The notes: a model not told the origin generated them from the sequence alone. DNA of 64,000 bases from Candidatus Omnitrophota bacterium (GCA_043797665.1 JAZDPL010000089.1:1-64000), one strand, 5' to 3'. Shown: positions 8,796-39,707, numbered from the stretch's first letter. Numbers and translations are program-made.

Positions 8796-8814
8796 AACTT
8801 ATTGTTTCTCCTTT

Positions 8815-9804: not shown

Positions 9805-10453
9805 TAATCCTTACCGGAGATGAATCCAAGCCCTTAATGGGTAAAGGCAAAATAAATACCAAAAACCTCTTCTTTTTCAATCGGTCCAGGTTAGCCATTG
9901 ATTCAATCAGCGGAATTCCGTTTTCAAAAAGAGTCGTATGATTTGGTTGGTTGTCGGTACCTTTAATTTCCAATCCGGTGGCATCTATACCCAGGCAATT
10001 TATCTTCTTTTTAACCAACCATTTCACCGCAGGGTGGGTAAGATAGGGTCGTTTGTGGCTATGCTTGGTTCTGTAAAATTTGTCGCGGCCGGTCCGGATA
10101 AAGACGATATCGCCTCTTTTTATTCTTTTTTCGTATCTTTGCAGGTCGTTAATATCAATTGCTTCATCGTTCTTCTTTGAAGAGAAATCAAGCAGTACTC
10201 CTTCACCCACCAGTTTTTCTATCGGAAATACAGAGGCATCCTGCCCGTTTCTGAGATGGTGATAAGGAAATTCTATATGTGTTCCCACGTGACTTGACAT
10301 GGTTACATTCTGAAGGATATACCAGATATCTTTCCGCCGCTTGTACCCCGGTAGAACTTCATCAGTAAAACGGGTTTCAATCTTAAGTCCGTATTCCTCC
10401 TTGCCTGGATACAACCTGTGGCTCAGGTCAACTATTCGTCCAATCTTCATCAT
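9782..10453 (-). CDS. Cyclase-family (kynurenine formamidase-like) metal hydrolase
   Basis: DLSH, HVGTHIEFPYH, LGID, SSPVRIIA. Confidence 0.88.
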   Translation of the reverse strand: MMKIGRIVDLSHRLYPGKEEYGLKIETRFTDEVLPGYKRRKDIWYILQNVTMSSHVGTHIEFPYHHLRNGQDASVFPIEKLVGEGVLLDFSSKKNDEAIDINDLQRYEKRIKRGDIVFIRTGRDKFYRTKHSHKRPYLTHPAVKWLVKKKINCLGIDATGLEIKGTDNQPNHTTLFENGIPLIESMANLDRLKKKRFLVFILPLPIKGLDSSPVRIIAIEKND

Positions 10454-10475
10454 ACCAGAAGACTAAAATACAACA

Positions 10476-22720: not shown

Positions 22721-24775
22721 ATGGATTTTCTACTGGAAGTGGGGGTGGAAGACTTACCGGCCGGGTCCATCGGTTCGCTGCGGGAAGAACTATCCCTCAG
22801 GTTCAGCCGGTTTCTAACTGAATTCAGGATAACTGCGGAAAAAATAGAGACCTTTTCCACCGTTCGCCGGTTAGTGGTAACCGCAAAGGGACTGCCGGAA
22901 AAACAGCCGGATAAGTTAACCGAGGTGGCAGGGCCACCAGCAGTTGCGGTCTTTCAACCCGACGGAGGACTTACTTCCACCGGAGAAGGCTACTGCCGGG
23001 CGCACCGGATAGAACCGAAAGAGTTAAAGGTAAAAGAAGAGGGCAAGAAAAAAACCGTCTACTATCTAAAGAAAGAAGAAGGCAAATCTATCCGGGAATG
23101 TTTGCGCCGGATAATTCCTCTCCTTTTAAATTCCCTTCCTTTTTCCATCACGATGCGCTGGGGAGAAGGAAACCTTCCTTTTATCCGGCCGATAACCTCG
23201 CTCTTAGCTTTGTTAGACGATGCTCTCCTGCCCGTAGAATTTGCCGGGATTAAAGCCAAGCCCTTTACTTATGGCCACCCCACCCTGGCACCCAAAAAAG
23301 TTAGGATTGATTCCGTATCCGGCTACTTCCAGGCTCTCTCAAAAAACTATGTTCTCCTGGATTCGCACGTCCGCAGACAAAAACTGTTAGACGAAATAAC
23401 CCCGTTATTACCGGCGGGTGCGGATTTCTCAGAAGAGAAATTAGCGGAAATATCTCAAGCCTTAGAGTATCCGCAAAGCGCTTTGAGCCGATTGGACATA
23501 GCCGGACTCCCTTATCCTCCGGAAGTGGTGGCGCTAATCATTGAAAACCTGAAGTGTCTGCCGCTCTTCGACCCGGACAAAAGGCTCCTGCCGGAATTTG
23601 TCATCATCGCTGAGGGCCAGGTGACAAGGGAGGTTAAAGAAGGTTTTCACTGGGTAATAGAAAGCCGTCTAGAGGACGCAAAATTCTTCTGGCTGGAAGA
23701 TACCCGGATTACAATCCCGGAACGTCTGAAAACCCTTAACAAGGTCATCTTCCAGGCAGAGTTAGGTTCCCTGGCAGATTACAGTAATAAACTGACCCTG
23801 GTCGCAGACCAATTAGGCAAAAGGCTAAACTTAAATGAGGCGGAAATAGCGGATTTGACCTCAGCCAGCCAGGCAGCCAAGATTGACTTAACCACCAGTA
23901 TGGTCCGGGAATTTCCCGAAACCGGCGGAATTATTGGTGCCAATCTTCTACAACGGAGCGGTTATTCGGAAACAATAACCTCGGCGGTCAGAGAATACCT
24001 CTTACCCCGGTTCTCCGGGGACCGGATACCGGAAACCATCCTGGGGCAAATACTCTCTTTTTCCGACAAAGTCTTACATCTGGCCGGATTATTTGCAGTC
24101 GGCATTCAACCTTCCGGTTCGGCTGACCCTTATGGTTTGCGCCGGTTAGCGCAGACCGCGATAGAAGTAGCCTGGAAGGCAAACTTCCGTCTCTCCTTAG
24201 GTGAAATAACCTCCATGGCTCTCAGCGCCTGGGAAAAAGAGGATAGCGGTATTAAGAAATTGTTCTCTGCTTTCCTATACCAACGGATGGAGAACACTCT
24301 GGAAAGTCACGGATTCAGACCGGACATCGTTTCCGCAGGTTTAGCCGGCGAAGGCGATAATCTGACCGCCTATCCGGCCCGGGTGTCTGCCCTGGCTAAA
24401 TTTGCCAACAAGACAACCGGCACTGCTTCTATCACAACTTTTAGCCGGGTAACCAATATCGTCATTCAGGCAAAAACAAAAAATATCTCTTACGGAACGT
24501 TTCAGACAAACCTCCTTACGGAAGAAGCGGAAAAAGAACTCTTCACCGCGTGGGATTCCCGGAAGGCTGAATTAGAAAAGATTTTAGATAACGAAGACTA
24601 CGCAGCGGCTCTGGACAGACTTGGCGAGTTGGAGCCGTTTATAAACCGTTTCTTTGACAAGGTCCTGGTGATGGCACCGGACGAAACCCTGCGCAATAAC
24701 CGCTTAAGCCTGTTAGCGCAGATAGACCAGGCTCTGCGCCGCATCGGCAACCTGAACCGCATCCAGCTCGGGTAG
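22721..24775 (+). CDS. glyS: Glycine--tRNA ligase beta subunit
   Basis: FLLEVGVEDLP, MRWG...FIRP, RLEDAKFF, SADPYGLRR, FFDKVLVM...NRL. glyQ is not adjacent. Confidence 0.92.
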   Translation: MDFLLEVGVEDLPAGSIGSLREELSLRFSRFLTEFRITAEKIETFSTVRRLVVTAKGLPEKQPDKLTEVAGPPAVAVFQPDGGLTSTGEGYCRAHRIEPKELKVKEEGKKKTVYYLKKEEGKSIRECLRRIIPLLLNSLPFSITMRWGEGNLPFIRPITSLLALLDDALLPVEFAGIKAKPFTYGHPTLAPKKVRIDSVSGYFQALSKNYVLLDSHVRRQKLLDEITPLLPAGADFSEEKLAEISQALEYPQSALSRLDIAGLPYPPEVVALIIENLKCLPLFDPDKRLLPEFVIIAEGQVTREVKEGFHWVIESRLEDAKFFWLEDTRITIPERLKTLNKVIFQAELGSLADYSNKLTLVADQLGKRLNLNEAEIADLTSASQAAKIDLTTSMVREFPETGGIIGANLLQRSGYSETITSAVREYLLPRFSGDRIPETILGQILSFSDKVLHLAGLFAVGIQPSGSADPYGLRRLAQTAIEVAWKANFRLSLGEITSMALSAWEKEDSGIKKLFSAFLYQRMENTLESHGFRPDIVSAGLAGEGDNLTAYPARVSALAKFANKTTGTASITTFSRVTNIVIQAKTKNISYGTFQTNLLTEEAEKELFTAWDSRKAELEKILDNEDYAAALDRLGELEPFINRFFDKVLVMAPDETLRNNRLSLLAQIDQALRRIGNLNRIQLG

Positions 24776-24779
24776 GAAA

Positions 24780-25820
24780 ATGAGCCTAAAAAAGATTGAA
24801 AAAAGTAAAGGCCTTTTTGATAAAATCTCCGGTTTAATTGAACATGCAAGAAGAAAGGTTGCTACCACAATTAACGAAGAGATGGTTATACTTTATTGGA
24901 ACATTGGGAAAACTGTTAAAGAAGAAATAATAAAATCGGATAGAGCAGAATATGGAAAACAAACAATCCAATCACTGAGTGGAGAATTAATACAACGATA
25001 TGGAAAAGGCTTTTCTGAACAAAATTTGTGGCATATGGTTAAATTCTCTGAGACCTATCCGATACTCTCCGCAGTGCGGAGAGAATTCACAGGGTTATCT
25101 TGGACACACATCAAAACAATTGTTTATATTGACGATGAATTAAAGCGTCAATTTTATGTTATCCTATGCCAGAAAGAACACTGGAGCACCCGTACACTTC
25201 AGGGAAGAATAAACAGTATGCTTTATGAGAGAACTGCATTATCAAAACTCCCGGAGAAGACCATAGAAAATCAATTGAGAGAATTGAAAGAAAAAGACAA
25301 GATGACTCCGGAATTAGTTTTCAGAGACCCTTATGTATTGGATTTTTTGGAACTTAGCGATACCTATAGCGAAAAAGATTTAGAAAGAGCAATATTGAAC
25401 GCCTTAGAAAAATTTATCCTTGAATTAGGAAAAGATTTTTATTTTGTCACAAGACAGAAAAGAATTACCCTTGATAATATAGACTATTACATTGATTTGC
25501 TATTCTATCATAGAAAGTTGAGATGTTTTGTAGTTATAGAGTTAAAACTTGATAAATTTAGGGCAGAATATAAAGGTCAGATGGAACTCTATTTGAGATA
25601 TATAGAAAAATATGAAACGGGTGAAGATGAACATCCGCCGGTTGGAGTTATCCTTTGTACTGAAAAAGGTAAAGAGCAGATTGAATTATTGTTTTTACCA
25701 GAAGATAAAATAAAAGTTGCTGAATATTTAACCAAATTACCACCAAAAGAACTGTTTGTTGAAAAATTGCATAAAGCAATCCTAACAGCACAGATAAAAT
25801 TAGATGACGGCAAAAGGTAA
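24780..25820 (+). CDS. YhcG/DUF1016 PDDEXK nuclease-domain protein
   Basis: LYWNIG, LSWTH, FRDPYVLDFL, FILELG, IDLLFYH...IELK, GQM. Confidence 0.92.
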   Translation: MSLKKIEKSKGLFDKISGLIEHARRKVATTINEEMVILYWNIGKTVKEEIIKSDRAEYGKQTIQSLSGELIQRYGKGFSEQNLWHMVKFSETYPILSAVRREFTGLSWTHIKTIVYIDDELKRQFYVILCQKEHWSTRTLQGRINSMLYERTALSKLPEKTIENQLRELKEKDKMTPELVFRDPYVLDFLELSDTYSEKDLERAILNALEKFILELGKDFYFVTRQKRITLDNIDYYIDLLFYHRKLRCFVVIELKLDKFRAEYKGQMELYLRYIEKYETGEDEHPPVGVILCTEKGKEQIELLFLPEDKIKVAEYLTKLPPKELFVEKLHKAILTAQIKLDDGKR

Positions 25821-25857
25821 TATAAAATGCTAAAATTAAAATTTACTCCCTAAAAAC

Positions 25858-25941
25858 ATGAAAACACTTTGGACTAAAGAACAGGAAATCGACTTTTTCA
25901 TAAATTCAAGAAAAATCGCCAGCCGATGTTGCCTTATGTAA
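25858..25941 (+). pseudogene. Possible 5' remnant of a deleted gene
   Basis: Short ORF MKTLWTKEQEIDFFINSRKIA... that stops abruptly. Resembles, from memory only, N-termini of RM-associated proteins. Confidence 0.3.
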
Positions 25942-25953
25942 GAATAGATAAAT

Positions 25954-26145
25954 ATGAAAAACAAGAATTTTGAAGTTAAAATTTATTACACCGGTCTTTG
26001 CACACACCAAGTAAAAGCAAAAACTAAAGATGAGGCTATCAACAAAGCCAGGAAAATTCCAATTAACAAAAACGAAATATTCAGTAACCTGGAAAATTGG
26101 AAAGAAGCTGATAATGCAGAAGAGTTAAAGAAGAACGAGGAGTGA
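25954..26145 (+). CDS. Small DpnD/PcfM-like protein
   Basis: 63 aa, FEVKI...VKAKTKDEAINKAR pattern; GTGA overlap with the MTase. Confidence 0.55.
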   Translation: MKNKNFEVKIYYTGLCTHQVKAKTKDEAINKARKIPINKNEIFSNLENWKEADNAEELKKNEE

Positions 26146-28145
26146 GCGAAAAAATGAATTCCAAAGTTTTCTATAAACCCTTAGAAGAAAAACTCAGAAC
26201 CGATGAAATTCTTGATGCAGTCTTCAAAGATTCTTCAACAAAACAGGGGCTAAAAGAATTCCCTCAGGGTATCTTGAACAAAATCAACGCTTTTGAAAAA
26301 GAGCCTGGCAGGTATTACATTCGCTGTCTAAAAAGAGATAAGGATATTTTTATCTACGACCGAAATAAGAAAATTGGCAAGCCCGAAGAAATTATCCGCC
26401 AACTCTGGCTAATAAAACTGACCCAGGAATATAAGTATCCTTTGGATAGAATTGAAGTCGAAAAGTCAGTCCAATTTGGCCGAGAAGTTAGAGAAAAATC
26501 AGCCGATATTGTTGTGTACAAGGAAGACAAAATTACCCCATACATAATCTTTGAGGTCAAACAGCCAGACGCTAAAAAAGCAGAAGAACAGTTGAAATCT
26601 TATTTAAGCGCTGAAGGCGCAGAAGGCGGTGTCTGGTCTAACGGCATTTCAAAATTCGTTCTCTACCGGCCGTATCCAAAGGAATACATAACCACCCTTT
26701 CCAACATTCCCAATTTTAATCAAACATGGGATGACCTTTTTGAAAAAAAGAGAACCTATGATGAATTGGAAAGTAAGTTTGACCTATCTTTTATTATTGA
26801 AAGACTTGAAGAGATGGTTTTAGCACAATCAGGTGTAAATGTATTTGAAGAAGTCTTTAAATTAATCTATGCCAAGCTTTATGATGAGGACCAGGCAAAG
26901 AACAAAAGGCCTAAAAAAGAGGTATTTTTTAGACAATACAAAGAACCAAAAAAGACTTATGCAGTCGTTAACGAAGAACTTTTCAAAGGCGCTCTCAAGG
27001 AATGGCCAGATATTTTCAACCCTTCAGCCAAAATTGATTTGACTCCGGAGCAATTACAAATTTGTGTCCCTTTTTTAGAAGATAAGAAATTCTTCGGTTC
27101 GGGCAGAGAGGAATTAGATATTATAGACCGCGCCTTTGAGCATTTAATCGCGGAAGTTTCTAAGGGACAAAAAGGTCAGTACTTTACACCCCGCAATGTA
27201 ATTAAAATGTGCGTTAAGATGCTCAATCCTAAAGAACATGAACACATCATTGATCCGGCTTGTGGTTCCGGCGGATTTTTGCTCCATACAATGTATTGGA
27301 TATGGGATGAACATCTAAAGTCCGCTTCTTGGGAGGCAAAACAGAGATATGCTAATCGTTATTTGTATGGTATTGATTTTGACGATAATATGCGCCGGAT
27401 TTCTCAGGCATTGATGCTTATTGCCGGAGATGGAAGACATAATATCTTTAAACGTAATTCCTTGGATGCGCGTGATTGGATTGGTGAACAGGCAGAGGAA
27501 GCAAGAACAGCATTAAAATCATTATTGTTTAAACAAGATGAGGATAACCGTAAAACTTACCGCTATCTTAAATTCGATATTTTAATGACCAATCCACCTT
27601 TTGCCGGAGAAATCACCGACTCCGGGTTGTTGCGTCAATATGAATTTGCCAAAAAGAACGGTAAACTTAAGCAAAAGGTGGAAAGACACTTGCTTTTTAT
27701 AGAGCGTTCCTTAGATGCACTCCGTCCAGGCGGCAGAATGGCTATTGTTTTGCCACAAGGAGTTTTCAATAATACCAACATGGAGTGGCTAAGAGAGTGG
27801 TTCTTTGAAAAAGCGCGTATATTAGCTGTTGTTGGTTTAGAAGGCAACACTTTTAAACTTCCAACGCCTGCCAAAGGCACAGGTACAAAAACGACCGTCT
27901 TATTTTTACAAAAATGGGAAGAGAACCAACAATCCTTAGCAGATTATCCTATCTTTATGGCGGTTTCTAAAAAATCAGGTAAAGATAACTCAGGCGAGTA
28001 TATCTTTATAAATGACGCAGGACAAAGAGTTACATCTAAAAACGGTATTTTTGAAGCGCAAGAAAATCTGAGATTAGATGATGATTTAAATGAGATTGCG
28101 GAAGAGTTTGTAAAATTTGCAAAGAAAGAAAAGTTTGTTTTTTAG
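26142..28145 (+). CDS. Fused HsdR_N-type nuclease plus N6-adenine methyltransferase (type I-like/IIB-IIG RM subunit)
   Basis: KPEEIIRQ...ADIVV...FEVK (PD-ExK), GQYFTPR, DPACGSGG, NPPF. Confidence 0.92.
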   Translation: MSEKMNSKVFYKPLEEKLRTDEILDAVFKDSSTKQGLKEFPQGILNKINAFEKEPGRYYIRCLKRDKDIFIYDRNKKIGKPEEIIRQLWLIKLTQEYKYPLDRIEVEKSVQFGREVREKSADIVVYKEDKITPYIIFEVKQPDAKKAEEQLKSYLSAEGAEGGVWSNGISKFVLYRPYPKEYITTLSNIPNFNQTWDDLFEKKRTYDELESKFDLSFIIERLEEMVLAQSGVNVFEEVFKLIYAKLYDEDQAKNKRPKKEVFFRQYKEPKKTYAVVNEELFKGALKEWPDIFNPSAKIDLTPEQLQICVPFLEDKKFFGSGREELDIIDRAFEHLIAEVSKGQKGQYFTPRNVIKMCVKMLNPKEHEHIIDPACGSGGFLLHTMYWIWDEHLKSASWEAKQRYANRYLYGIDFDDNMRRISQALMLIAGDGRHNIFKRNSLDARDWIGEQAEEARTALKSLLFKQDEDNRKTYRYLKFDILMTNPPFAGEITDSGLLRQYEFAKKNGKLKQKVERHLLFIERSLDALRPGGRMAIVLPQGVFNNTNMEWLREWFFEKARILAVVGLEGNTFKLPTPAKGTGTKTTVLFLQKWEENQQSLADYPIFMAVSKKSGKDNSGEYIFINDAGQRVTSKNGIFEAQENLRLDDDLNEIAEEFVKFAKKEKFVF

Positions 28146-28153
28146 AAATAAAT

Positions 28154-28384
28154 ATGACAAGTTTTGGTATTTTTATTTCTGCAATAGGTTTATTTTGCGC
28201 TTTAACGGCAACTGTTTTGCTTTACTTTGGTTCACAGGGGGTCCCGTGGAAAAATCAAACTTGGGACGGAAATAGTAAAAATGAAAAAAAGCATTGTGAA
28301 TCAAGAAAGAATATGTCCAAAACGGGATTTATTCTCCTAGGAATTGGATTCTTGTTACAACTTATAGGTTTGTTTTTTGACTAA
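28154..28384 (+). CDS. Small two-helix membrane protein
   Basis: 76 aa with two hydrophobic segments; tightly packed between the M and S genes. Confidence 0.65.
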   Translation: MTSFGIFISAIGLFCALTATVLLYFGSQGVPWKNQTWDGNSKNEKKHCESRKNMSKTGFILLGIGFLLQLIGLFFD

Positions 28385-28389
28385 ATTTT

Positions 28390-29748
28390 ATGACCTGCTC
28401 AATTATTCAAAAATCCCAGCTTGAAGGCGCACATCGGTTAGATGCAGAATATTTTCAACCAAAATATCTAAAAATAGATCAGGAAATCCGCAATTCGAAT
28501 TATAAAACATGGGAAGAAATTGAGGGACGATTCATTACAGGGCCTTTCGGTTCAGAATTTAATGTTGATAATTATGTTTTAGATGGTAAGTTCAGATATG
28601 TACGGGGAAAAGATGTCAAAGAATTCTTTTTACTTGATGATGACAATGTCTACATTCCACAAAAAGATTTTGATAGATTACAAAAATGTTCTTTAGTAAA
28701 AGGTGATATTTTAATATCGGTTGTCGGAACACTTGGGAATGCAGTTGTTGTTGATAATTCTGTCCTCCCGGCCATATTTAGTTGTAAAAGCACGGTTTTT
28801 CGTAGCAAATCTATCGACCCTTACTATCTTATAGCCTACTTAAATTCCCACTACGGAAGAAATTTATTGATTAGAAATGTGAGAGGTGCGGTTCAGACTG
28901 GACTTAATATCGGCGACCTTAAATTTCTACCTATCATTATTCCATCTATAAACAAACAAAAAGCCATAGCCTCAATTGTTGTAGCGGCAAAAAAGATAAG
29001 CGATGATTCAAAATTTCTCTATTCCCAAGCCGAAGATTTACTTTTAGAGGAATTAGGACTTAAAGATTTTAAGCCAGAAGAAGATTTATCCTGTGTAGTA
29101 AATCTTTCCGATGCTAAATCCGTTCACCGTATGGATGCCGAATTTTTTCAGCCGAAGTACGAAAGAATAATTCAGAAAATCAATAAACACAAGGTAACAT
29201 TACTCGGTGATTTAGCTATTATGAAAAAAGGGATTGAACCAGGAAGTGACGAATATCTGAATGAAGGCAAGTTATTTATTCGTGTTAGTAGTATTTCAAT
29301 GCAAGGTATAATTGATAGAGATCAAAAATACTTAAGCAACGAATTATATCAAACATTTAGAACCAATTTTGAGCCAAAAGTAGGAGAAATTTTACTTACC
29401 AAAGATGCCACTCCAGGTATTGCTTACGTCATAAAAGAATCTGTTGAAGGAATTATTTCAAGCGGTATTATGCGTTTGAAACTTAAAGAAGATATTGGCA
29501 CAGAATACTTGGCTCTTTGTATTAATTCTATTGTGGGCAGAATGCAAATGGAACGAGATGCAGGAGGCTCAATTATTATCCACTGGAAGCCAGAACAAAT
29601 CAAAAACCTGCAAATTCCTATCCTACCGAAATTTACTCAACAAAAAATCGCAGATTTAGTTCGTAAATCCCACGAAGCCCGCAAAAAAGCAAAAGAACTA
29701 TTAGACGAAGCCAAGCAAAAAGTAGAAAGGATTATTTCTGGAGAATAA
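28390..29748 (+). CDS. RM specificity subunit (HsdS-like, two TRDs)
   Basis: Duplicated HR(L/M)DAE(Y/F)FQPKY; GPFGS, GAVQ...L, QIPILP...QQKIA. Confidence 0.9.
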   Translation: MTCSIIQKSQLEGAHRLDAEYFQPKYLKIDQEIRNSNYKTWEEIEGRFITGPFGSEFNVDNYVLDGKFRYVRGKDVKEFFLLDDDNVYIPQKDFDRLQKCSLVKGDILISVVGTLGNAVVVDNSVLPAIFSCKSTVFRSKSIDPYYLIAYLNSHYGRNLLIRNVRGAVQTGLNIGDLKFLPIIIPSINKQKAIASIVVAAKKISDDSKFLYSQAEDLLLEELGLKDFKPEEDLSCVVNLSDAKSVHRMDAEFFQPKYERIIQKINKHKVTLLGDLAIMKKGIEPGSDEYLNEGKLFIRVSSISMQGIIDRDQKYLSNELYQTFRTNFEPKVGEILLTKDATPGIAYVIKESVEGIISSGIMRLKLKEDIGTEYLALCINSIVGRMQMERDAGGSIIIHWKPEQIKNLQIPILPKFTQQKIADLVRKSHEARKKAKELLDEAKQKVERIISGE

Positions 29749-31919
29749 TGGCCCTGATAAATACTGAAAGTACATTTTTTCAAGGTAAACGCCCTTGGTC
29801 TAAAATAAAAGACTCGGTATTAAAAGATTATTTGCCACCCTATCTTAATAAAGTTGCTCAGCTTAAACAGCAAATAATCTTGGTGGATGCTTTTGCCGGA
29901 CCGGGAATTTTTGAAAATGAAACAGGAGCGGAGAGATTAGGTTCTCCTTTAATAATTTTAAATGCTGCGGAAAAACACGTCCCTGGTAAATATTTTGCAA
30001 TTTTTGTAAATTCTAATAAAGTCTACCATGCTAAATTAGAAAATGTGATAAGTAAATTAATTTCACGAAAATCGGCACAGATTTTATATGGTACGGCTCA
30101 AGAACTTTTAACAGAATTGAATAAAATTCCAACTAACCAGACACTTTTTGTTTATTTAGATCCATTCGGTCTTAAGAATCTTGATTTTAAATTAATCGAA
30201 CCATTCTTAAAAAGAAATGTTCTCTATAGTAGCACCGAGATACTTATTAATATGAGTATGCCCACCCTACACCGATTAGCGACACGAAACTTGCAACAGA
30301 ACGGCAACCAAACATCAAAATCTATAAAATTAAATGAGACACTTACAAAAGTATTGGGTGGCGATTATTGGAAAGAAATTATGTGGAGTGAATCTCTGAA
30401 TGCCGAAGATAAAGAAATAAAAGTAGTGGAAAAATATAGAGAGTTGCTGAAGAAATATTTATCTTATACAGGTTCATGTCCAGTCAGAGAAAAACAGGGA
30501 AATAGAATAAAATATTTTATCACCTTTTGCTCCCGGCATCCCGATGCCATGCTTCTAATGAATGATTTTATGTGTAAATCCTATTTTAAATACATGCATG
30601 AAAGGGATTATGTTGCCACTCTTTTTAAAAATATGGATTGGAAAAAAATGAGAAATTTATCTTCCCTTAAAAAAATCATCCTTGAAGAAATAAATTCTAA
30701 ATCCAAACAAACTCGCATAGAATTATGGGGTAAGATAATGCAAAATAATTTCATGAAATACCACTCTTCCGAATATAAAGAAGCGGTAAAACAGATTGTT
30801 GACGAGGGGAAAATAAAATACGAAAACCCAAAGAATACCGGAAGACTTAACGATGACTGTATACTTTTTTTGAACAATAAAAGTTACGATTTAAACGATA
30901 GTAATGGACTTTTGGTAGGAGAAAAAGCCATTGAATATTTGCAGATACAAAATAGGATTGTTAACAAAATAAAGATTCAGTTTGATAATTATAAAACTTT
31001 GGATGGTGGAATAAAATATTTAGTTAAACAGGTTAATGATGGTTCAATAATTACACGTTTTGACAAAACCCCCTTACCCCAGGTAGCAACGGATGTTATT
31101 TGTCCTCATTTCGTGGAACTGAAATGGGCATACGGCTGCCCTTTTGATTGTTCCTGGTGCTATTTGAAGGGGACTTTTAGATTCAGGCCCGAAGGCATTA
31201 AGCCGGTGGTTAAAGATTTCGGAAAAGTAAAGTCGCACGTAGAAGCATTTTTAAATGAGGTCAAAGAACCAGAGATTTTGAATACGGGCGAACTTGCGGA
31301 TTCACTGATGATGGAAAATGGAGCCGGTGCCTTTTCAAAAACCATAATTCCTTTATTTGAATCCCAGGATAAACATAAGGTTTTATTTGTTACTAAATCA
31401 AGTAATATAAAAAACCTCCTGGAAATAAATCCCCACAGGCAAGTAATAGTAAGTTTCACCTTAAATGCATTGGCGGTTTCAGGATTATGGGAGAAGAAGG
31501 CGCCGAAGGTTTTGGACAGAATTAAAGCGGCAGGAGAATTAAGTAAAGCAGGCTACGAAGTCAGGATAAGGATTGACCCAATGGTGCCAATTGAAAACTG
31601 GCCGGGTCTTTACCATGACCTTATAGACAAAATATTTTTAGCATTTAAGCCGGAACGGATAACCCTGGGTTCTTTACGTGGCTTACAGAGTACCATAAAC
31701 GGCACGAAAGATACCTCCTGGGTTCACTACTTAAAAGAAACTTCTAATTGGGGCAAGAAAATAGATTTTACTACCCGGATGAAGATGTATTCTGAGATAA
31801 CCTCTTATTTGAAGAAGGAACATAGATACGGTAAAATAGCTCTTTGCAAAGAAACCAAAGCGATGTGGCAGAAGTTAGGGATGGACTACGAGGATATAAA
31901 GTGTAATTGTGTCTGGTAG
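29748..31919 (+). CDS. Fusion of TcmP (three-Cys-motif partner) MTase-like/wHTH domains with a spore-photoproduct-lyase-like radical SAM domain
   Basis: N-term WSKIK...Y, VDAFAGPG, YLDPFG, EILIN; C-term GCPFDCSWCYL (CxxxCxxC), TGELADSL, TKS, RIDP, terminal CNC. TAATG coupling to hsdS. Confidence 0.82.
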   Translation: MALINTESTFFQGKRPWSKIKDSVLKDYLPPYLNKVAQLKQQIILVDAFAGPGIFENETGAERLGSPLIILNAAEKHVPGKYFAIFVNSNKVYHAKLENVISKLISRKSAQILYGTAQELLTELNKIPTNQTLFVYLDPFGLKNLDFKLIEPFLKRNVLYSSTEILINMSMPTLHRLATRNLQQNGNQTSKSIKLNETLTKVLGGDYWKEIMWSESLNAEDKEIKVVEKYRELLKKYLSYTGSCPVREKQGNRIKYFITFCSRHPDAMLLMNDFMCKSYFKYMHERDYVATLFKNMDWKKMRNLSSLKKIILEEINSKSKQTRIELWGKIMQNNFMKYHSSEYKEAVKQIVDEGKIKYENPKNTGRLNDDCILFLNNKSYDLNDSNGLLVGEKAIEYLQIQNRIVNKIKIQFDNYKTLDGGIKYLVKQVNDGSIITRFDKTPLPQVATDVICPHFVELKWAYGCPFDCSWCYLKGTFRFRPEGIKPVVKDFGKVKSHVEAFLNEVKEPEILNTGELADSLMMENGAGAFSKTIIPLFESQDKHKVLFVTKSSNIKNLLEINPHRQVIVSFTLNALAVSGLWEKKAPKVLDRIKAAGELSKAGYEVRIRIDPMVPIENWPGLYHDLIDKIFLAFKPERITLGSLRGLQSTINGTKDTSWVHYLKETSNWGKKIDFTTRMKMYSEITSYLKKEHRYGKIALCKETKAMWQKLGMDYEDIKCNCVW

Positions 31920-31928
31920 CCCTTTAAT

Positions 31929-31958
31929 GGATTCCCGCTTAAAGCATGCGGGAATGAC
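31929..31958 (+). repeat. ATTCCC-N-GGGAAT palindrome (dRS3-like), possible terminator
   Basis: GGATTCCCGCTTAAAGCATGCGGGAATGAC at the right edge of the AT-rich island. Confidence 0.65.
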
Positions 31959-31970
31959 AGAATAGATGCA

Positions 31971-33203
31971 ATGAATAACATAAAAAAGGTGGACCCGAAG
32001 GTCGCTTACTGGATTAAGAAAGAAGAAGAAAGACTCTCTTCCACTCTGGAGTTAATCGCTTCCGAAAATCTGGTGAGCAAGGCGGTTCTGGAAGCAACCG
32101 GCTCGGTTTTGACCAACAAGTACGCGGAAGGTTACCCGGGCCGGCGTTATTACGGGGGCTGCCGGTTTGTGGACGAGGTGGAAAAATTGGCGATAGACAG
32201 AGCCAAAAAACTTTTTGGCGTAGCATACGCTAACGTTCAACCCCATTCCGGAACTCAGGCTAATATGGCGGTCCTCCTGTCGGTCCTGAAGGTTGGCGAC
32301 CCGATTATGGGTATGAGTTTGGATGCGGGCGGACATTTGAGCCACGGCGCTCCCGCCAACTTCTCCGGCTGCCTCTTCGCCAACCATCCTTACACGGTGG
32401 ACCGGAAGACGGAACTTTTAGACTATAACCGCATCGCTCTCCTGGCGGAAAAAGTAAAACCAAAGATGATTATCTGCGGCGCCAGCGCCTATCCCCGGAT
32501 AATAGATTTCGCGGAATTCCGCAGGATTGCCGATAACGTAGGCGCCTACCTTCTGGCCGATATCGCCCATATCGCGGGCCTGGTGGTCGCCGGTCTCCAC
32601 CCTACTCCGGTCGGCCAGGCCCAGTTCATCACCACCACCACGCACAAAACCCTGCGCGGACCGAGAGGCGGTCTGATTCTGGCGGACAAAGAACACGGCC
32701 ATATTCTGGACCGGATGATATTCCCGGGCATTCAGGGCGGCCCGTTGATGCATATCATCGCAGCCAAGGCGGTGGCTTTTCAGGAGGCGCTGAAACCGGA
32801 GTTTAAAAAATATCAAAACCAGATTATCAAGAACAGCAAGGCCCTGGCTAAAAATCTCCGGGAGAAAAAGTTCCGTCTGGTTACCGGCGGCACGGACAAC
32901 CACCTGGTTCTCATTGACCTGACCGACAAAAATATCACCGGTGCGGAAGCGGAAAAATTCTTAGAGGATGTGGGCATCTCCGCCAACAAAAATATGATTC
33001 CTTTTGACCCGCTTGATGCCAAGAAGACCAGCGGTCTCAGAATCGGTACGCCCGCAGCAACCACCCGGGGGATGAAAGAACCGGAGATGGCTCTGATTGC
33101 CGAACTGATTGCGGAAACGCTTCAACACCGGTCAAATTCAGTCTGCCTGAAAAAGATTAACGGTAGAGTAAAAAGACTCTGCCTTCGTTTTCCAATTAAA
33201 TAA
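31971..33203 (+). CDS. glyA: Serine hydroxymethyltransferase
   Basis: [35 protein letters not shown]. Confidence 0.98.
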
Positions 33204-34495: not shown

Positions 34496-37400
34496 GTGAC
34501 CCTGACACAAGTTTTCAAGCGACTGGCAAAGACAAAAACCTTTCAGGAAACCCTTTCTTTAATTGCCAAATCAGAAAAAACCGTTTATCTCTCAGGGTTG
34601 GCTGGCTCCTCCCGCAGCCTGTTTACCGCCGCCCTGTTTTCAAAATTACGTACGTTCCCAAAAACCCTACTCATAACACCCAACGTAGAGAGCGCCAGCC
34701 GGGCTTACGGTGACCTGCAAACGTTTCTGCCTTCTAAAAATGTCGCCTACTTTCCTTTCAGTGAGGTACTTCCTGACGAAGGACTTACCCCCCAATCTGA
34801 CATTGGGGTCCCCGCGCCGCCTGAGGGATTGCCGAACAATAAAGTTGACCATTTGCCAGAGGCGATTTTGGAACGAGACAAGGAGCGAAGAAGATTGCGT
34901 ACCCCCTGTGGTACGGAAGCAATGAGCGACGCAGTCGCAGCCCAAAAGCGACCTGGCCCTTCGGGGAGTCCCATCTTTAGGTCATTGCGTCGTTGCTCCT
35001 CGGCTATGTGCCACAGTGGGCACAGAGCCTTCGTCGCGCCTTGCACTGACCTCAAATCCGGAACTCCAAATAGTCAACTTTATTGTTCGGCAATCCCTGA
35101 GGTTGAAAGCCAGCGCCTTGAGGTACTTAATCAGATGTCGGCTAACGAAAAGGAACCCCTTCTGGTCGTGGCGCCAATTCAGGCAGTAATCCCGCCGTTA
35201 CCCACTCCGAAAGTCCTCAAGGAACATACTATCAGCCTCAAACTCAGACAGCCCTTAGACCGCAGCCGTTTCATTGAGAAGATGGTGGCTTGTGGTTATC
35301 AGAGGGCGGAATTAGTCACGGAAGCCGGCCAGTTTGCAATCCGGGGCGGTATTATCGACCTTTTTCCGACCACCCGGGAACGACCCCTCCGGATTGAACT
35401 CTCCGGCAACAAAATTATCTCCTTGCGGTACTTTAATCCGGAGACCCAGTTGAGTTACGAACCAACCGGTTCGGTCACCATCCTTCCCGTAACCGAAAAA
35501 GGACTGATGCCTCCGGAAAATGCCGGTTTCTTTCTGGAATATTTTCCGCCGGGAACCCTGCTGGTATTGTGGGAATTGCCGAATATCCTTACGGAAGAGA
35601 AAACTTTCTTCAGAAAGACGAACTTTCCTATTATCAGCCTCTCCTCTAATCCCCCTTCTTCCCCCTTTACAAAAGGGGGATTTGAGGGGGATTTAAAAGG
35701 AGAATCGTTCCACACGGAAAGCGTAACCCGGTTCAGTCTGAAAGGACCGGTTACCTTGCCGGATATCTGGCAGAAAGAACCCCTCCTCATCTTCTGCCGG
35801 AACGAAAGCCAATCCAAAAGGTTAAAAGAAGTTCTGGCGGAGCGCCGGTTAAGACTGCATCCGGAAAGCGTTGTTGACATCGGCTATCTTGCCGAAGGTT
35901 TTTCCTTTCCCGCAATCGGATTAACCTGCCTCTCCGACTCGGAAATCTTCGGCCGATACCGCTCCTTCCGGCCCGGGCTGAAACCCTTCTTCCAATCCCC
36001 GGCGATTCATACCACGGAAGAGATTAAACCCGGCAACTACGTCGTACATCTCAACGAAGGCATCGGAAAATTTCTGGGTATCAGCCATCTCAAGGTAGAC
36101 GAAAAGAAGGAAGAAGTGCTGAAGATTGAGTATGCAGAAGGTATGCTGCTTTACGTGCCGGTCAACCAGATTAATCTGGTCCATCGCTACGCGGGTGCGG
36201 AAAAACCTCCTGTACTCTCCCGGTTAGGCGGTCGTACCTGGCTCAAAACCCGGGAACGGGTAAAGGAAGGGATACGGGATTTAGCCAGCGACCTGCTGAG
36301 AATCTATCAGTACCGAAAAGAGAAGAAAGGGTTAGCCTACCCTCCGGATTCCGCCTGGCAGACCGAATTTGAAGGTGAATTTATTTACGAAGAGACACCG
36401 GACCAGTTAACCGTGACCAAAGAAGTAAAAGAAGACCTTCAATCCCCTAAACCGATGGACCGGCTCATCTGCGGGGACGTCGGTTACGGAAAGACCGAAG
36501 TGGCGATGCGGGCCGCCTTTAAAGTGGTAGAGACCGGGAAACAGGTGTCTCTCCTGTGCCCGACCACGATTCTCGCCGAACAGCACCTGCGGACCTTCCG
36601 CGAACGATTTGCCGACTTTCCGGTCCGGATTGAGAACTTATCCCGGTTCCGCAGTCAGGAAGAACAGAAAGCAATCGTTATTGACCTGGCGGAAGGCAAG
36701 ATTGAAATCATTATCGGCACCCACCGGCTTTTCAGTAAGGATATCCGGTTCAAAGACTTAGGTTTGTGGATTGTTGACGAGGAACAGCGCTTTGGCGTCA
36801 CCCATAAAGAACGTTTACGGGCGCGCTGGCCGGAGATTGACATCCTAACCCTTTCCGCCACGCCGATTCCCCGGACGATGCAGTTATCCCTCTCTGGCAT
36901 CCGGGACCTTTCCGTAATTGAAACACCTCCGGCCGGAAGGCAGGCAATCCTGACCTTCCTCTCGCCTTACCGGGAAGACCTGATTGTGAAGTCCTGCCAG
37001 CGCGAATTAGAACGTTCCGGACAGGTCTTCTTCGTCCACAACCGGATAGAAAACATTGACCGCATCGCCGACCGTTTAAGGAATCTCATACCGGAGGCAG
37101 AAATTGCGACTGCCCACGGTCAGATGGAAGAAAAGGACCTGGCCGGAGTAATGGACCGGTTTTTAGACCAGAAAATAGACATCCTGGTATCCACCTCCAT
37201 CGTGGAATCCGGTCTGGACATTCCCACCGCCAACACTATCATCATCAACAACAGCCAGAACTTCGGTTTAGCAGACCTTTACCAGTTACGGGGCCGGGTC
37301 GGCCGGTACAAAAGCCAGGCGTATTGTTATCTCCTCTATAACCCGGCGGAAGTACTCACCGAGGAGGCGCGTAAAAGGCTTACCGCAATGGAAGAATTCA

Positions 37401-37765
37401 GCCGGTTGGGCAGCGGCTTGCGTCTGGCTTTAGCAGACCTGGAGATACGCGGGGCGGGAAACATTCTGGGCAGGGAACAACACGGCTTCATTGAAGCGGT
37501 TGGTTTCTATCTCTATAGCCAGTTATTCCGGGAGGCGGTGGCAGAACTGACCGGTCAAAAGGTAAAAAGTGAAGTCAATATTTCCAAGATAAAAGGCGTC
37601 CTTCCGGAAGAGTATATCCCGTCAGAGATGGTACGCCTCTCCTTGTACCGCCGCATCTTTGGCCTTTCCGAAGATGCCGAAAAAATGGCGCGGGAGATGG
37701 CAGACCGTTTCGGTCCGGTACCGGAAGAGACCCGCAAATTCCTCCGTTCCTTTACGCCAGGCTGA
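34496..37765 (+). CDS. mfd: Transcription-repair coupling factor with three in-frame repeat insertions
   Basis: RGGIIDLF, CarD/TRCF domain, GDVGYGKTE, DEEQRFG, SATPIPR, QLRGRVGR. Confidence 0.96.
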   Translation: MTLTQVFKRLAKTKTFQETLSLIAKSEKTVYLSGLAGSSRSLFTAALFSKLRTFPKTLLITPNVESASRAYGDLQTFLPSKNVAYFPFSEVLPDEGLTPQSDIGVPAPPEGLPNNKVDHLPEAILERDKERRRLRTPCGTEAMSDAVAAQKRPGPSGSPIFRSLRRCSSAMCHSGHRAFVAPCTDLKSGTPNSQLYCSAIPEVESQRLEVLNQMSANEKEPLLVVAPIQAVIPPLPTPKVLKEHTISLKLRQPLDRSRFIEKMVACGYQRAELVTEAGQFAIRGGIIDLFPTTRERPLRIELSGNKIISLRYFNPETQLSYEPTGSVTILPVTEKGLMPPENAGFFLEYFPPGTLLVLWELPNILTEEKTFFRKTNFPIISLSSNPPSSPFTKGGFEGDLKGESFHTESVTRFSLKGPVTLPDIWQKEPLLIFCRNESQSKRLKEVLAERRLRLHPESVVDIGYLAEGFSFPAIGLTCLSDSEIFGRYRSFRPGLKPFFQSPAIHTTEEIKPGNYVVHLNEGIGKFLGISHLKVDEKKEEVLKIEYAEGMLLYVPVNQINLVHRYAGAEKPPVLSRLGGRTWLKTRERVKEGIRDLASDLLRIYQYRKEKKGLAYPPDSAWQTEFEGEFIYEETPDQLTVTKEVKEDLQSPKPMDRLICGDVGYGKTEVAMRAAFKVVETGKQVSLLCPTTILAEQHLRTFRERFADFPVRIENLSRFRSQEEQKAIVIDLAEGKIEIIIGTHRLFSKDIRFKDLGLWIVDEEQRFGVTHKERLRARWPEIDILTLSATPIPRTMQLSLSGIRDLSVIETPPAGRQAILTFLSPYREDLIVKSCQRELERSGQVFFVHNRIENIDRIADRLRNLIPEAEIATAHGQMEEKDLAGVMDRFLDQKIDILVSTSIVESGLDIPTANTIIINNSQNFGLADLYQLRGRVGRYKSQAYCYLLYNPAEVLTEEARKRLTAMEEFSRLGSGLRLALADLEIRGAGNILGREQHGFIEAVGFYLYSQLFREAVAELTGQKVKSEVNISKIKGVLPEEYIPSEMVRLSLYRRIFGLSEDAEKMAREMADRFGPVPEETRKFLRSFTPG
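34825..35097. mobile_element. 273-bp MITE with 31-bp TIRs and TGA target duplication, in frame in mfd
   Basis: GGGATTGCCGAACAATAAAGTTGAC(C/T)ATTTG at both ends (1 mismatch); TGA at 34822-24 and 35098-100; 273+3 = 92 codons with no stop. Confidence 0.92.
35648..35693. repeat. CCCCCTTT-AAAGGGGG palindrome in frame in mfd
   Basis: AATCCCCCTTCTTCCCCCTTTACAAAAGGGGGATTTGAGGGGGATT, read as NPPSSPFTKGGFEGD. Confidence 0.75.
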
Positions 37766-37789
37766 AATTTTTGGTATAATAAGTTTGTG

Positions 37790-37880
37790 TGTCATTCTGA
37801 GCGTAGCGAAGAATCTCATCCTTAGATCCTTCACTACCCTTTCCCATCCGAGGGAAAGGGAACCCGCGTTCAGGATGACA
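37790..37880. repeat. GTCATTCTGAG palindromic repeat with nested hairpin, in the tRNA leader
   Basis: Lies between TGGTATAAT (37772-80) and the tRNA; 29-bp insert at 37837-37865. Confidence 0.85.
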
Positions 37881-37893
37881 TCTATACGTTCCT

Positions 37894-37965
37894 GGGGCAG
37901 TAGTTTAGTGGGAAAACACTGGAATCGCACTCCAGAGACCGAGGGTTCAAATCCCTTCTGCTCCA
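37894..37965 (+). tRNA. tRNA-Ala(CGC)
   Basis: Acceptor GGGGCAG/CTGCTCC with G3:U70, discriminator A; D stem GTTT/AAAC; anticodon arm CTGGA-ATCGCAC-TCCAG; T arm GAGGG-TTCAAAT-CCCTT. CCA not encoded. Confidence 0.93.
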
Positions 37966-37979
37966 CTTCCCTATTTTTA

Positions 37980-39707
37980 CTATTCTCTGAGGAATTGCTT
38001 GTTGAATGTTTTTTCGGTAATTTCAATCACGGTGGGACGGCCGTGCGGACAGGTAAAAGGGTCCCGGCAGTTCACCAGTTCGTTACGCAGATATTCCGCC
38101 TCTTCTTTATTAGAAGCATCACCCGCCATAACTGACTGACGGCAGGCACGCCGTACCAGGGAATCGTTACTGCAATTGGCAAGGTTCTCGCCGGAAAGAA
38201 GGTTGCGTATTGCCGGCTCCACGCTGGTAATCACCTGGGGATGGGAATGGACGCCGATATGCTCCTTGTCCCACAAGGTACTGGCAAACCCGATATCACC
38301 CAACCTCTCCTTCCCCTCCTCCCAACTTACCATTTCGGCCGGGGAAAGGTTGATTACGGACGGCACGAGCAGATGCTGCACCCTGACGGTACCGGTCTCA
38401 ATCTCCAATTTCAGCTTTTCATAGGTAATCCGTTCGTGCGCCGAATGCTGGTCAATAATCAGGAGGGAATTATCGGTCTCAAAGAAGAGGTATTTGTTCC
38501 GGAAGACTCCAAGATACCGGCTGTTTATCAGTTTAGACTTCAGGCTGCCGGCGCCGGAGTCCTCCCTGATTCCTTCTCCTTTCGGGAAATCTTCCTGACC
38601 CGGAAGAGATGCCTGGGTAAGGGGTATTTCAGACCCGGGCACCGGATAAGATACGGAACCGGAGGGTGACGTCTTTACGTCCGGGAATATAACCTCCCTG
38701 ACCTGTTTTGCCTGCCCCATAGATACCAGGACTTCCTGACAGAGAAAATGAAGTCTGGAGGCAAGGAGGTTTTCGTCTTTTATCTTAACCTCGCGCTTGG
38801 CAGGGTGAATGTTGACGTCCACCGCTTCCGGAGGTACGGTGATATCCAGGATAAAGAAGGGGTACGATTCCGGAGGCAGGATGCTCCGGTACATTTTATT
38901 GATGACAAAACTGACGTTGTCGTGCTGGACCGGCCTGCGGTTGACAAAGACGAACTGTAAATCCCTCCTTGGTCTCTGAATGTTGATGTCGCCCAGAATC
39001 AAATGCAGGGAAACCTGACGGTCCGGGAACTCCTTTCCGGTCTCCAACAAAGATTCCCGGGGCAGGTTCAAAACCCGGCTGACCCGGTTTATCCGGTTCT
39101 CTTCCGGTAAGAGTTCCAGTACATTTTTTGATTCGTGCCAGAGGATGAACTGATATTCCGGATAGATAATCGTGTAAGGGATAAAAATATTGAGAATCTG
39201 CTTGAATTCGGTAGCGTCGGCCTTTAAAAATTTCCGCCGCGCCGGTGTATTGAAGAAGATCTCCTGAACTTCAATCTCCGTACCTACCGGCATACTAACG
39301 GTCCGGAGGCTTATCCTTTCGCCACCCCGCAGGTGCATCTCCAGACCGGTATCGGAGCCTTTCGTCCGGCTCCGTAACGTAACGTCGGATACCGCCGCAA
39401 TACTGTAGAGCGCCTCTCCCCGGAATCCCAAGGATTTGACGGTGTAAAGGTCTTCGGCCCGGGATATCTTGCTGGTGGCGTGGCGCAAAAAGATTTTCTC
39501 CAGGTCGTCCGGCTCAATGCCGTCACCGGAATCCTTTACCTGAATGAAGGTCTTGCCGGACTTCTTGACCTTAACCTCCAACGTCTTAGCCCCGGCATCA
39601 AGACTGTTCTCAACCAGTTCTTTGACGACTGACGCGGGCCGTTCCACAACCTCGCCGGCGGCAATCTTGCCGGCTACCTCAGGCGGCAGCAGATTTACTT
39701 TTCCCAT
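37980..39707 (-). CDS. mutL: DNA mismatch repair endonuclease MutL
   Basis: IAAGEVVERP, GFRGEAL, DVNIHPAK, DQHSAHERITYE, CPHGRP. Confidence 0.97.
   Translation of the reverse strand: MGKVNLLPPEVAGKIAAGEVVERPASVVKELVENSLDAGAKTLEVKVKKSGKTFIQVKDSGDGIEPDDLEKIFLRHATSKISRAEDLYTVKSLGFRGEALYSIAAVSDVTLRSRTKGSDTGLEMHLRGGERISLRTVSMPVGTEIEVQEIFFNTPARRKFLKADATEFKQILNIFIPYTIIYPEYQFILWHESKNVLELLPEENRINRVSRVLNLPRESLLETGKEFPDRQVSLHLILGDINIQRPRRDLQFVFVNRRPVQHDNVSFVINKMYRSILPPESYPFFILDITVPPEAVDVNIHPAKREVKIKDENLLASRLHFLCQEVLVSMGQAKQVREVIFPDVKTSPSGSVSYPVPGSEIPLTQASLPGQEDFPKGEGIREDSGAGSLKSKLINSRYLGVFRNKYLFFETDNSLLIIDQHSAHERITYEKLKLEIETGTVRVQHLLVPSVINLSPAEMVSWEEGKERLGDIGFASTLWDKEHIGVHSHPQVITSVEPAIRNLLSGENLANCSNDSLVRRACRQSVMAGDASNKEEAEYLRNELVNCRDPFTCPHGRPTVIEITEKTFNKQFLRE

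Follow-up and report, generated by a model that had tools for sequence, protein, structure and literature searches.

The window, a 64,000-nucleotide stretch of DNA from a Candidatus Omnitrophota bacterium (GCA_043797665.1 JAZDPL010000089.1:1-64000), encodes on the plus strand a 723-residue protein in which a TcmP domain, a probable winged helix-turn-helix (wHTH) and a radical S-adenosylmethionine (SAM) domain with the fold of spore photoproduct lyase (SPL) are joined in a single chain. The open reading frame (ORF; positions 29748..31919) starts with ATG and runs without an internal stop according to both the ORF list and the translation, in agreement with an earlier interpretation of the bare sequence, hereafter the sequence-only reading, which had described one stop-free ORF of this length. 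The gene follows directly on that of an HsdS-type specificity subunit, at a junction reading GAATAATGGCC, where the hsdS stop codon TAA (29746-29748) and the ATG of the fusion (29748-29750) have one base in common; the TAATG overlap described previously is therefore present, with an extent of 1 nt, and the predicted translational coupling of the two genes is taken as real. The motifs singled out in the same reading all lie where it had placed them, including (i) DAFAGPG, residues 47-53; (ii) LDPFG, residues 137-141; (iii) TGELADS, residues 513-519; and (iv) the CxxxCxxC motif C464-x3-C468-x2-C471, at nt 31137-31160.

The N-terminal half is a true TcmP domain with an RlmJ-like fold. Residues 16-276 (29793..30575, plus strand) match the NCBIfam model TIGR04474 (TcmP) at 117.3 bits against a cut-off of 53, and at 120 bits in a whole-genome search, in which the genome of the window discloses one TcmP. 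The domain comprises a class I SAM-binding fold with a motif I-like DAFAG and a motif IV-like DPFG. The Foldseek comparison of this half with the PDB returns RlmJ as the best match (6qe5_B, E 9.6e-7, template modelling score normalized to the target, TM(target), 0.53), together with the DUF519 entry 2oo3. RlmJ, the 23S ribosomal RNA (rRNA) m6A2030 methyltransferase of the DUF519 family, accounts for residues ~1-290 of the fusion and shares with the TcmP half a SAM-binding, motif I-like DxFxGxG; important differences are nevertheless apparent, given that (i) the two proteins are only ~10% identical, (ii) the TcmP half displays DPFG where RlmJ has DPPY, the catalytic motif IV of RlmJ/DUF519 N6-adenine methyltransferases, and (iii) the fusion bears in addition a wHTH and a radical SAM domain, and its substrate is probably DNA. 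Across alignment A1, which comprises 34 full-length homologues sharing 41-71% identity with the query, the motif IV equivalent of the family reads D138-P-[F/E]-G141.

The probable wHTH (residues 297-362; 30636..30833, plus strand) matches the GMT-like wHTH family PF22560 at 18.8 bits, below the Pfam cut-off of 27; the same family is found above cut-off in homologues (e.g., P0124, 29 bits), and the region is modelled as helical with a predicted local distance difference test score (pLDDT) of 86-93. An AlphaFold2 model calculated on the 34 homologues (mean pLDDT, 83.8; predicted TM score, pTM, 0.53) displays two well-folded halves separated by a disordered and variable linker (residues 378-406; 30879..30965, plus strand), where pLDDT falls below 50 and the columns of A1 are gapped and variable.

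The C-terminal half (residues 408-723; 30969..31916, plus strand) adopts an SPL-type radical SAM fold. A profile search of all PDB sequences discloses SPL as the sole match (E 4.9e-13), and Foldseek retrieves SPL as well (4fhc, E 8.7e-10, TM(target) 0.60). The Pfam family SPL, PF20903, covers residues 460-631 at 58.4 bits against a cut-off of 27, by way of profile positions 83-252 of 338 only, whereas the SPL equivalog TIGR04070 (residues 460-633, 76 bits) and TIGR03886 (45.8 bits) remain below their cut-offs of 400 and 437.55, respectively. The profile searches and the structure prediction proposed along with the sequence-only reading thus agree on a TcmP domain and an SPL-family domain, with the SPL equivalog failing, and on an RlmJ-like N-terminal half followed by an SPL-fold C-terminal half. 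The claimed succession of TcmP, probable wHTH and CxxxCxxC radical SAM domain of the SPL type finds its confirmation in the TIGR04474, SPL profile and Foldseek matches.

HMMER aligns the CMGHCHYCY segment of SPL with C464-PFD-C468-S-W470-C471-Y472, so that the cysteine triad of the fusion (31137..31160, plus strand) corresponds to the [4Fe-4S]/SAM motif CMGHCHYC, and sequence and fold are consistent with a putative reductive cleavage of SAM at the predicted [4Fe-4S] cluster. W470 and Y472, both invariant in A1, are aligned with Y96 and Y98 of SPL, the latter with a role in the radical relay according to the title of PDB entry 4k9r and to reference 44 as cited in PMC8989533. The position of C140, the hydrogen-donor Cys of the Geobacillus enzyme (represented by the C140A and C140S chains), is aligned with A517, conserved at ≥90% in A1, or with E515 under an alternative gapping; the donor Cys, which appeared to be lacking from the TGELADS region in the sequence-only reading as well, is absent from the fusion. 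On the other hand, four further cysteines (C452, C700, C719, and C721) are invariant and may for this reason bind Zn or form a second cluster. SplB (PDB code, 4FHC; TIGR04070, PF20903) therefore resembles this domain in fold, cluster motif and the aromatic residues at the Y96/Y98 positions, and provides a precedent for action on DNA; it differs in the low equivalog score and partial profile match of the fusion, in the replacement of C140 by Ala or Glu, in the four extra cysteines, and in that the present family is fused to TcmP and occurs in non-sporulating, uncultured lineages.

Residues invariant in A1 include C464, C468, C471, D47, F49, G51, D138, P139, and G141, in addition to the four cysteines mentioned above, and the TcmP half preserves K21, D47-x-F49-x-G51, G65-S66, D138-P139-x-G141, E164, and R176. 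Sequences of the TcmP half diverge into three subgroups, with identities down to ~25% across phyla; the radical SAM half is extraordinarily conserved, at 60-77% identity across phyla. The conservation of domains and motifs, as read from the alignment, far exceeds chance.

The low-GC islet and its restriction-modification unit

The fusion gene lies at the end of an islet (24776..31970, unstranded) of low guanine-plus-cytosine (GC) content, located between glyS (22721-24775) and glyA (31971-33203). GC content is 0.29-0.41 within ~24780-31950 and 0.46-0.54 on either side. The 7.2 kb segment is an insertion, since six genomes from the same family (G003-G008) have glyS next to glyA, with 14 bp between the two genes in G007 (locus L090). 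The radical SAM half is present in three of 61 related genomes and in none of the eight other genomes of the same family, and the fusion gene appears to be mobile and accessory.

Upstream of the fusion, the islet encodes a putative restriction-modification (RM) unit. The M protein (26142..28145, plus strand) combines a nuclease domain (HSDR_N_2, ~26382-26711, 79.8 bits) and an N6-adenine DNA methyltransferase domain (N6_Mtase, ~27117-28100, 122.4 bits), matches the PADLOC model MTase_I (PDLC03034) at 544.6 bits, and displays D122, E138-x-K140, and N484-P-P-F487 as invariant residues in five homologues. The specificity subunit S (28390..29748, plus strand) comprises two stretches of Methylase_S (71.4 bits) and matches PADLOC Specificity_I at 177 bits. 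No ResIII or HsdR ORF was found between glyS and glyA in the ORF list and domain scan. Because M bears an intact PD-ExK motif together with the N6-adenine methylase, M and S look like a complete, self-sufficient nuclease-methylase unit in the style of type IIB/IIG systems, which M resembles in joining an N-terminal PD-ExK domain to an N6-adenine methylase and in having a separate S. The same intact nuclease motif leads to the rejection of a type I system that lost its R subunit. A role of the fusion enzyme as a substitute for the missing HsdR is rejected as well, on account of this motif and of an M-S unit that stands alone in genome G016. There, M (82% identical) and S (53%) lie between glnS and an RNase T gene (L087, G016:C4, 6581-9926), and neither a TcmP nor a radical SAM gene occurs within 8 kb; standing alone as they do, the nuclease-methylase and its S form a mobile two-gene system in their own right. 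In L087, M is preceded by a different ORF of 147 residues. Searches by tblastn with M and S of the window against the 80 loci described below disclose close relatives only in L021, L031, and L039, more distant methylases at the loci being visible only by Pfam scan. An assignment of the islet as MADS was also considered and rejected: M and S find their best NCBIfam names in MAD2 and MAD5, yet the MAD2-like and MAD5-like scores of 289.9 and 161.8 bits lie far below the MADS cut-offs of 720 and 400, and no other MAD model matched among the ten proteins scanned. The prediction of a complex between HsdS (452 residues) and residues 408-723 of the fusion with A1 gave a score of 0.00, a verdict neither way.

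The first gene of the islet encodes a YhcG/DUF1016 PD-(D/E)xK nuclease (24780..25820, plus strand; YhcG_C, 168.6 bits; DUF1016_N, 150.9 bits; PADLOC PDC-S02, 424 bits). A 63-residue ORF seen in the translation (25954..26145, plus strand) overlaps the start of M, carries no Pfam family and may not be a gene. A scan of the islet for signals returns 28 promoter-like sites against 23.2 expected and three terminator-like sites against 6.0 expected, and is uninformative. Just downstream of the islet, the DNA-repair genes mfd (plus strand), mutL (minus strand), and mutS (minus strand) occupy 34496-42294; a link to the fusion was rejected, these genes having native GC content and lying outside the insertion. 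The stop codon of the fusion is followed by a hairpin repeat of ~35 nt that resembles repetitive extragenic palindromic elements (TTCCCGC...GCGGGAA; 31923..31984, plus strand), with copies at 91-100% identity spread over many contigs of this genome (G000) and of its relatives, one of them in the glyS-glyA spacer of G003. The element has the appearance of a repeat dispersed through the genome and already present at the insertion site, a native spacer element that does not belong to the islet; given this distribution and a folding z-score of only -1.2 for its eight pairs, it is not claimed as a terminator.

Recurrence, fusion partners and genomic neighborhoods

The fusion is a recurrent architecture. 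A search of 5.8 billion proteins, in which 7,999 candidates were scored, yields 527 at E ≤ 1e-3, and 105 of the 119 matches listed besides the query cover at least 96% of it at 40-71% identity. The source names of the listed homologues are "TcmP" or "spore photoproduct lyase", and NCBI already labels such fusions TcmP. In species-representative genomes (185,579 species, one genome each), a relative is encoded in 126 of the 135 stretches found as candidates, from which 80 loci were kept and classified with local hidden Markov models built from A1, comprising (i) fused TcmP-radical SAM proteins (29 loci); (ii) adjacent genes in the order TcmP then radical SAM (26 loci); (iii) adjacent genes in the order radical SAM then TcmP (three loci); (iv) radical SAM genes with no detectable TcmP (15 loci); and (v) radical SAM genes at a 5' contig edge, where the architecture is undecidable (seven loci). 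The split TcmP partners reach 165 (L006), 193 (L060), and 219 bits (L039) on TIGR04474, and the link between TcmP and radical SAM domain is robust to gene order. With 105 near-full-length homologues and 29 fused loci, the explanation named as fatal in the sequence-only reading, namely a one-off stop-loss or assembly error, is ruled out.

All but one of the loci (79/80) are titled as metagenome-assembled genomes or uncultured bacteria, L065 carrying neither label, and they are distributed over Zixibacteria, Sumerlaeota, WOR-3, Thermodesulfobacteriota, Nitrospirota, Chloroflexota, Clostridia, Planctomycetota, and Ignavibacteria, in addition to one archaeon. Phage records contribute three distant matches in 50,697 records, and IMG/VR four loci. 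The radical SAM half alone matches 1,565, 793, and 151 cluster representatives of 1.84 billion at E ≤ 1e-3, 1e-10, and 1e-30, respectively.

A particular case is L031, where an ORF of 345 residues (10001-11038) joins ~27 N-terminal residues of TcmP straight to an intact radical SAM domain; the gene order is RadC, M (82% identical to that of the window), S, and then this ORF, which, judged by its sequence, derives from the fusion by an in-frame deletion. Two other loci contain additional radical SAM genes. In L001, two consecutive ORFs directly after a full-length fusion gene (4450-5276) match the halves of the "radical SAM mobile pair protein B"/Rv2578c family (TIGR04470, NF038135), forming a second SplB-type radical SAM gene that is apparently split. 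In L070, a HATPase_c_3 protein, an ORF of 315 residues and a second, different radical SAM protein (6169-9840) lie upstream of a radical SAM-then-TcmP pair, an arrangement that may represent a larger variant system.

The radical SAM half also combines with domains other than TcmP. A scan of 29 long radical SAM family representatives for partner domains found TcmP in three; an HsdS/MAD5-like specificity subunit in one (P0121), with the same architecture as the L039 ORF at 8543-10951; an N-terminal ParB_N, with or without HTH_ParB, in ~10; a C-terminal ParB in two; HTH_20 (P0133), sigma-70 region 4 (P0148), and DUF488 (P0208) in one each; and an intein or LAGLIDADG insert in four. The relatives with ParB_N/HTH_ParB fusions or intein/LAGLIDADG inserts are P0127, P0128, P0134-P0136, P0145, P0154, P0186, P0201, and P0241, and P0131, P0159, P0190, and P0141. 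Each identified partner is, by its domain assignment, a DNA-binding or DNA-site-specifying module, and because these partners (HsdS, ParB, HTH) bind or specify DNA sites, DNA is the likely substrate. The sole solved relative of the radical SAM half, SPL, is itself a DNA enzyme.

The neighborhoods were analyzed by a Pfam scan of 326 ORFs from 63 loci, with at most three ORFs taken on either side of the cassette and tallies obtained by reading of the tables. A DNA methylase is encoded within three ORFs in 16 of the 63 loci, and in 13 of the 63 (L004, L005, L031, L032, L035, L039, L041, L045, L049, L060, L063, L068, and L073) an N6_Mtase/Eco57I-type enzyme lies directly upstream on the same strand, in the form of M plus S, an M-S fusion, a type IIG enzyme with TaqI_C, a type ISP-like enzyme, or proteins of 1,078-1,388 residues. 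Further neighbors include SLFN_AlbA_2, ResIII, Cas3/Cas5/Csd1, Mrr-STAND, GmrSD, TIR, AbiEii, HEPN/NTase, HicA, PIN, and RadC. The coupling to an RM operon proposed from the sequence of the window consequently stands insofar as it recurs in these 13 loci and is reinforced by the HsdS-radical SAM fusion of L039 and P0121; it is not obligatory, given that ~26 of the 63 loci have housekeeping neighbors only and that M and S occur alone in G016. The survey of recurrence and defense islands called for in the sequence-only reading has a similarly divided outcome, with a fusion that recurs and a sizeable share of loci among housekeeping genes. Recurrent insertion sites lie between yidC and mnmE (L002, L023), between mnmA and asmA (L006, L008), between pyrD and pyrF (L020), in the recA-recX-alaS region (L014, L074, L079, L080), and between DUF1844 and padR-acrAB (L046, L047, L059).

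The PADLOC collection of defense models gives no match with the whole fusion protein, and its N-terminal half alone (residues 1-291) matches PDC-M30A (50.5 bits, E 3.8e-14) and PDC-M41A (42.5 bits, E 1.6e-11); scans in the style of defense finders would miss the fusion because only the isolated N-terminal half is matched. No PDC-M30B or PDC-M41B match was obtained at E ≤ 10, and Pfam shows no match to PF07505 (DUF5131). The proposal of a candidate new defense module is curtailed as to its novelty, PDC-M30A and PDC-M41A being already PADLOC candidates and the fusions already carrying the TcmP name at NCBI.

Candidate activity of the fusion enzyme

The partner for which the TcmP family is named is a DUF5131/Gp37-Gp68 "three-Cys-motif" protein. 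The TcmP plus DUF5131 pairs (PDC-M30 and PDC-M41, going by the PADLOC model names) resemble the fusion in that (i) the TcmP component is the same, PDC-M30A and PDC-M41A matching its N-terminal half, (ii) the second component likewise belongs to the radical SAM superfamily, and (iii) both are mobile. The differences reside in the partner, a ~310-residue SPL-fold domain with a canonical CxxxCxxC motif instead of DUF5131, and in the arrangement of both halves in one chain with the wHTH between them. TcmP cassettes are thus already catalogued, and what is new here is a fused cassette with an SPL-type partner in place of DUF5131. RadicalSAM.org, as described in PMC9477430, places the MJ0683-like, DUF5131, and SPL proteins in sub-clusters 5-1, 5-2, and 5-3 of Megacluster-5, and DUF5131 and the SPL-like domain, as sub-clusters of one megacluster, are relatives. 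PDC candidates derive, according to Payne et al. (bioRxiv 10.1101/2024.01.29.577857), from genes located inside BREX, DISARM, or type I RM systems; the main text of this preprint does not name PDC-M30 or PDC-M41. A TcmP gene is reported to adjoin the Hna defense gene in Sinorhizobium (PMC12445080).

Two radical SAM enzymes acting on DNA are described in PMC8989533 as the only ones known, namely SPL, a repair enzyme, and gp53 of phage M6, an SPL-like enzyme that isomerizes glycinyl-thymidine within DNA during thymidine hypermodification and is, for its authors, the first radical SAM enzyme installing a DNA modification. By description only, gp53 resembles the present family as an SPL-like radical SAM enzyme, and the base modification that it edits lies in polymeric DNA (PMC8989533). 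On the other hand, gp53 is phage-encoded and belongs to a 5-hydroxymethyldeoxyuridine (5-hmdU)/kinase/aGPT-Pplase pathway as outlined in that source, none of whose genes is seen here, and the present family is nearly absent from phage records.

The reading that we favor, with a confidence that stays a little short of even, is that of a self-contained, horizontally mobile, DNA-directed enzyme with two SAM-dependent activities, which would modify DNA bases and so provide a self/non-self or protection mark. The RlmJ-like TcmP domain and the wHTH would bind DNA, with TcmP flipping out or otherwise presenting the target base, which it may also methylate, by analogy with amino-methyltransferases. 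The SPL-fold domain would then cleave SAM reductively at the C464/C468/C471 [4Fe-4S] cluster, and the resulting 5'-deoxyadenosyl radical would take a hydrogen from the DNA base. The substrate radical would be resolved in a manner different from SPL, so that a base modification would be installed or rearranged instead of a lesion being simply reversed, a difference proposed because the hydrogen-donor Cys of SPL is missing. The mark would finally serve self/non-self discrimination or protection. In the window, the enzyme, as the last cistron of the islet and coupled to S, probably works beside the RM unit, possibly at the same sites; the HsdS fusion seen in L039, together with the L031 deletion form, suggests that in this lineage the RM specificity apparatus is able to direct the radical module.

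Several points weigh against this reading. TcmP may not methylate at all, since its motif IV-like DPFG differs from DPPY in lacking both the second Pro and the aromatic residue, and, as the L031 deletion form shows, at least one lineage can do without TcmP. At a pTM of 0.53, the geometry between the domains is not modelled with confidence. Association with defense islands is far from universal, with ~26 of the 63 loci embedded among housekeeping genes only, and the neighbor counts are descriptive, without a background rate and with many loci interrelated. The radical SAM half finds no match in PADLOC even at E ≤ 10, and the literature search returned no functional study of TcmP, DUF5131, or the fusion. 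An RNA substrate is also conceivable, RlmJ being an RNA methylase and several flanks being tRNA-related (mnmA, mnmE, TrmO, alaS, and glyS).

In an alternative that we regard as unlikely, the enzyme would be a restriction-like or abortive effector, whose radical SAM domain damages unmarked DNA by strand break or cross-link following hydrogen abstraction, TcmP giving a protective methyl mark or sensing, and the whole behaving as a selfish unit comparable to a fused type IIG RM enzyme. Lone insertion among housekeeping genes, as RM units do, is consistent with this scheme (between yidC and mnmE, recA and recX, mnmA and asmA, or pyrD and pyrF), and so is the constancy of the radical SAM half (60-77%) versus a TcmP half at ~25%, a pattern expected where an unchanging effector is paired with a specificity or sensor component that diversifies. 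The radical SAM loci without TcmP often have an RM-type neighbor (L004, L013, L021, L025, L031, L038, L048, and L069), and an HsdS-radical SAM fusion exists. Against such an effector, M already holds an intact nuclease motif, and the radical SAM domain of L031 survives without the body of TcmP, a loss that should kill the cell if TcmP acts as the antidote, unless protection comes from M. No radical SAM enzyme is known as a restriction nuclease, which also counts against it.

It appears quite unlikely that the fusion serves DNA repair, as an SPL-family lyase that reverses a non-ultraviolet pyrimidine lesion in anaerobes, with TcmP and the wHTH recognizing the lesion. SPL as the sole solved relative, the retained relay Tyr (Y472), and four loci in the recA-recX-alaS region (L014, L074, L079, and L080) would fit a lyase of this kind; the lack of a Cys at the C140 position and a score of 76 bits where the equivalog demands 400 argue otherwise, as do the low-GC insertion with its patchy distribution (three of 61 relatives, none of eight in the same family), the recurrence beside methylases and defense genes, and the fusions to sequence-specific modules (HsdS, ParB), ill-suited to lesion repair.

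Modification of rRNA or tRNA by the RlmJ-like and radical SAM domains, with a coincidental RM neighborhood, is improbable: the 23S rRNA m6A methylase RlmJ as best fold match of the N-terminal half, a sub-cut-off TIGR04474 match in the E. coli control genome, and frequent tRNA-gene flanks (mnmA, mnmE, TrmO, MiaB-like, and alaS, with glyS in the window) speak for it, but ParB, HsdS, and HTH modules occur in one chain with the radical SAM half, a wHTH is present, the distribution is patchy and mobile, unlike that of core RNA-modification genes, and the tRNA-gene flanks represent few independent lineages and typical conserved anchors of insertion hotspots.

Beyond the favored reading of a DNA-base-modifying enzyme, the family might constitute a new enzyme class that modifies or restricts DNA at targeted sequences through radical SAM chemistry, with a constant SPL-fold module and swappable targeting partners (TcmP, HsdS, ParB, HTH). 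Such enzymes would write a hitherto undescribed base modification, or a lesion on unmarked DNA, for self/non-self discrimination, in the window at sites set by the co-translated S, a proposal that is possible but that we hold to be rather doubtful. A cellular mobile family of this kind would point to unexplored DNA chemistry, possibly to a new epigenetic or immune mark, and, if true, would explain what the TcmP/"three-Cys-motif" cassettes and the PADLOC candidates PDC-M30 and PDC-M41 do. The single-chain form offers a convenient entry into the family, comprising in one gene both predicted activities, with clear cluster and SAM motifs and a defined RM partner.

The Chloroflexota cassettes deserve a separate description. 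They occur, with or without a type IIG methylase, in L035, L045, L053-L056, L061, L064, L067, and L073 (also in L049 and L063), at a site between mtnA and mtnP, where an IF-2B-family gene lies upstream in ten loci and a PNP_UDP_1 gene downstream in seven. Flanks of the mtnA and methylthioadenosine (MTA)/5'-deoxyadenosine phosphorylase type correspond to enzymes able to salvage radical SAM by-products, and this setting may reflect either a hotspot of one lineage or a functional link.

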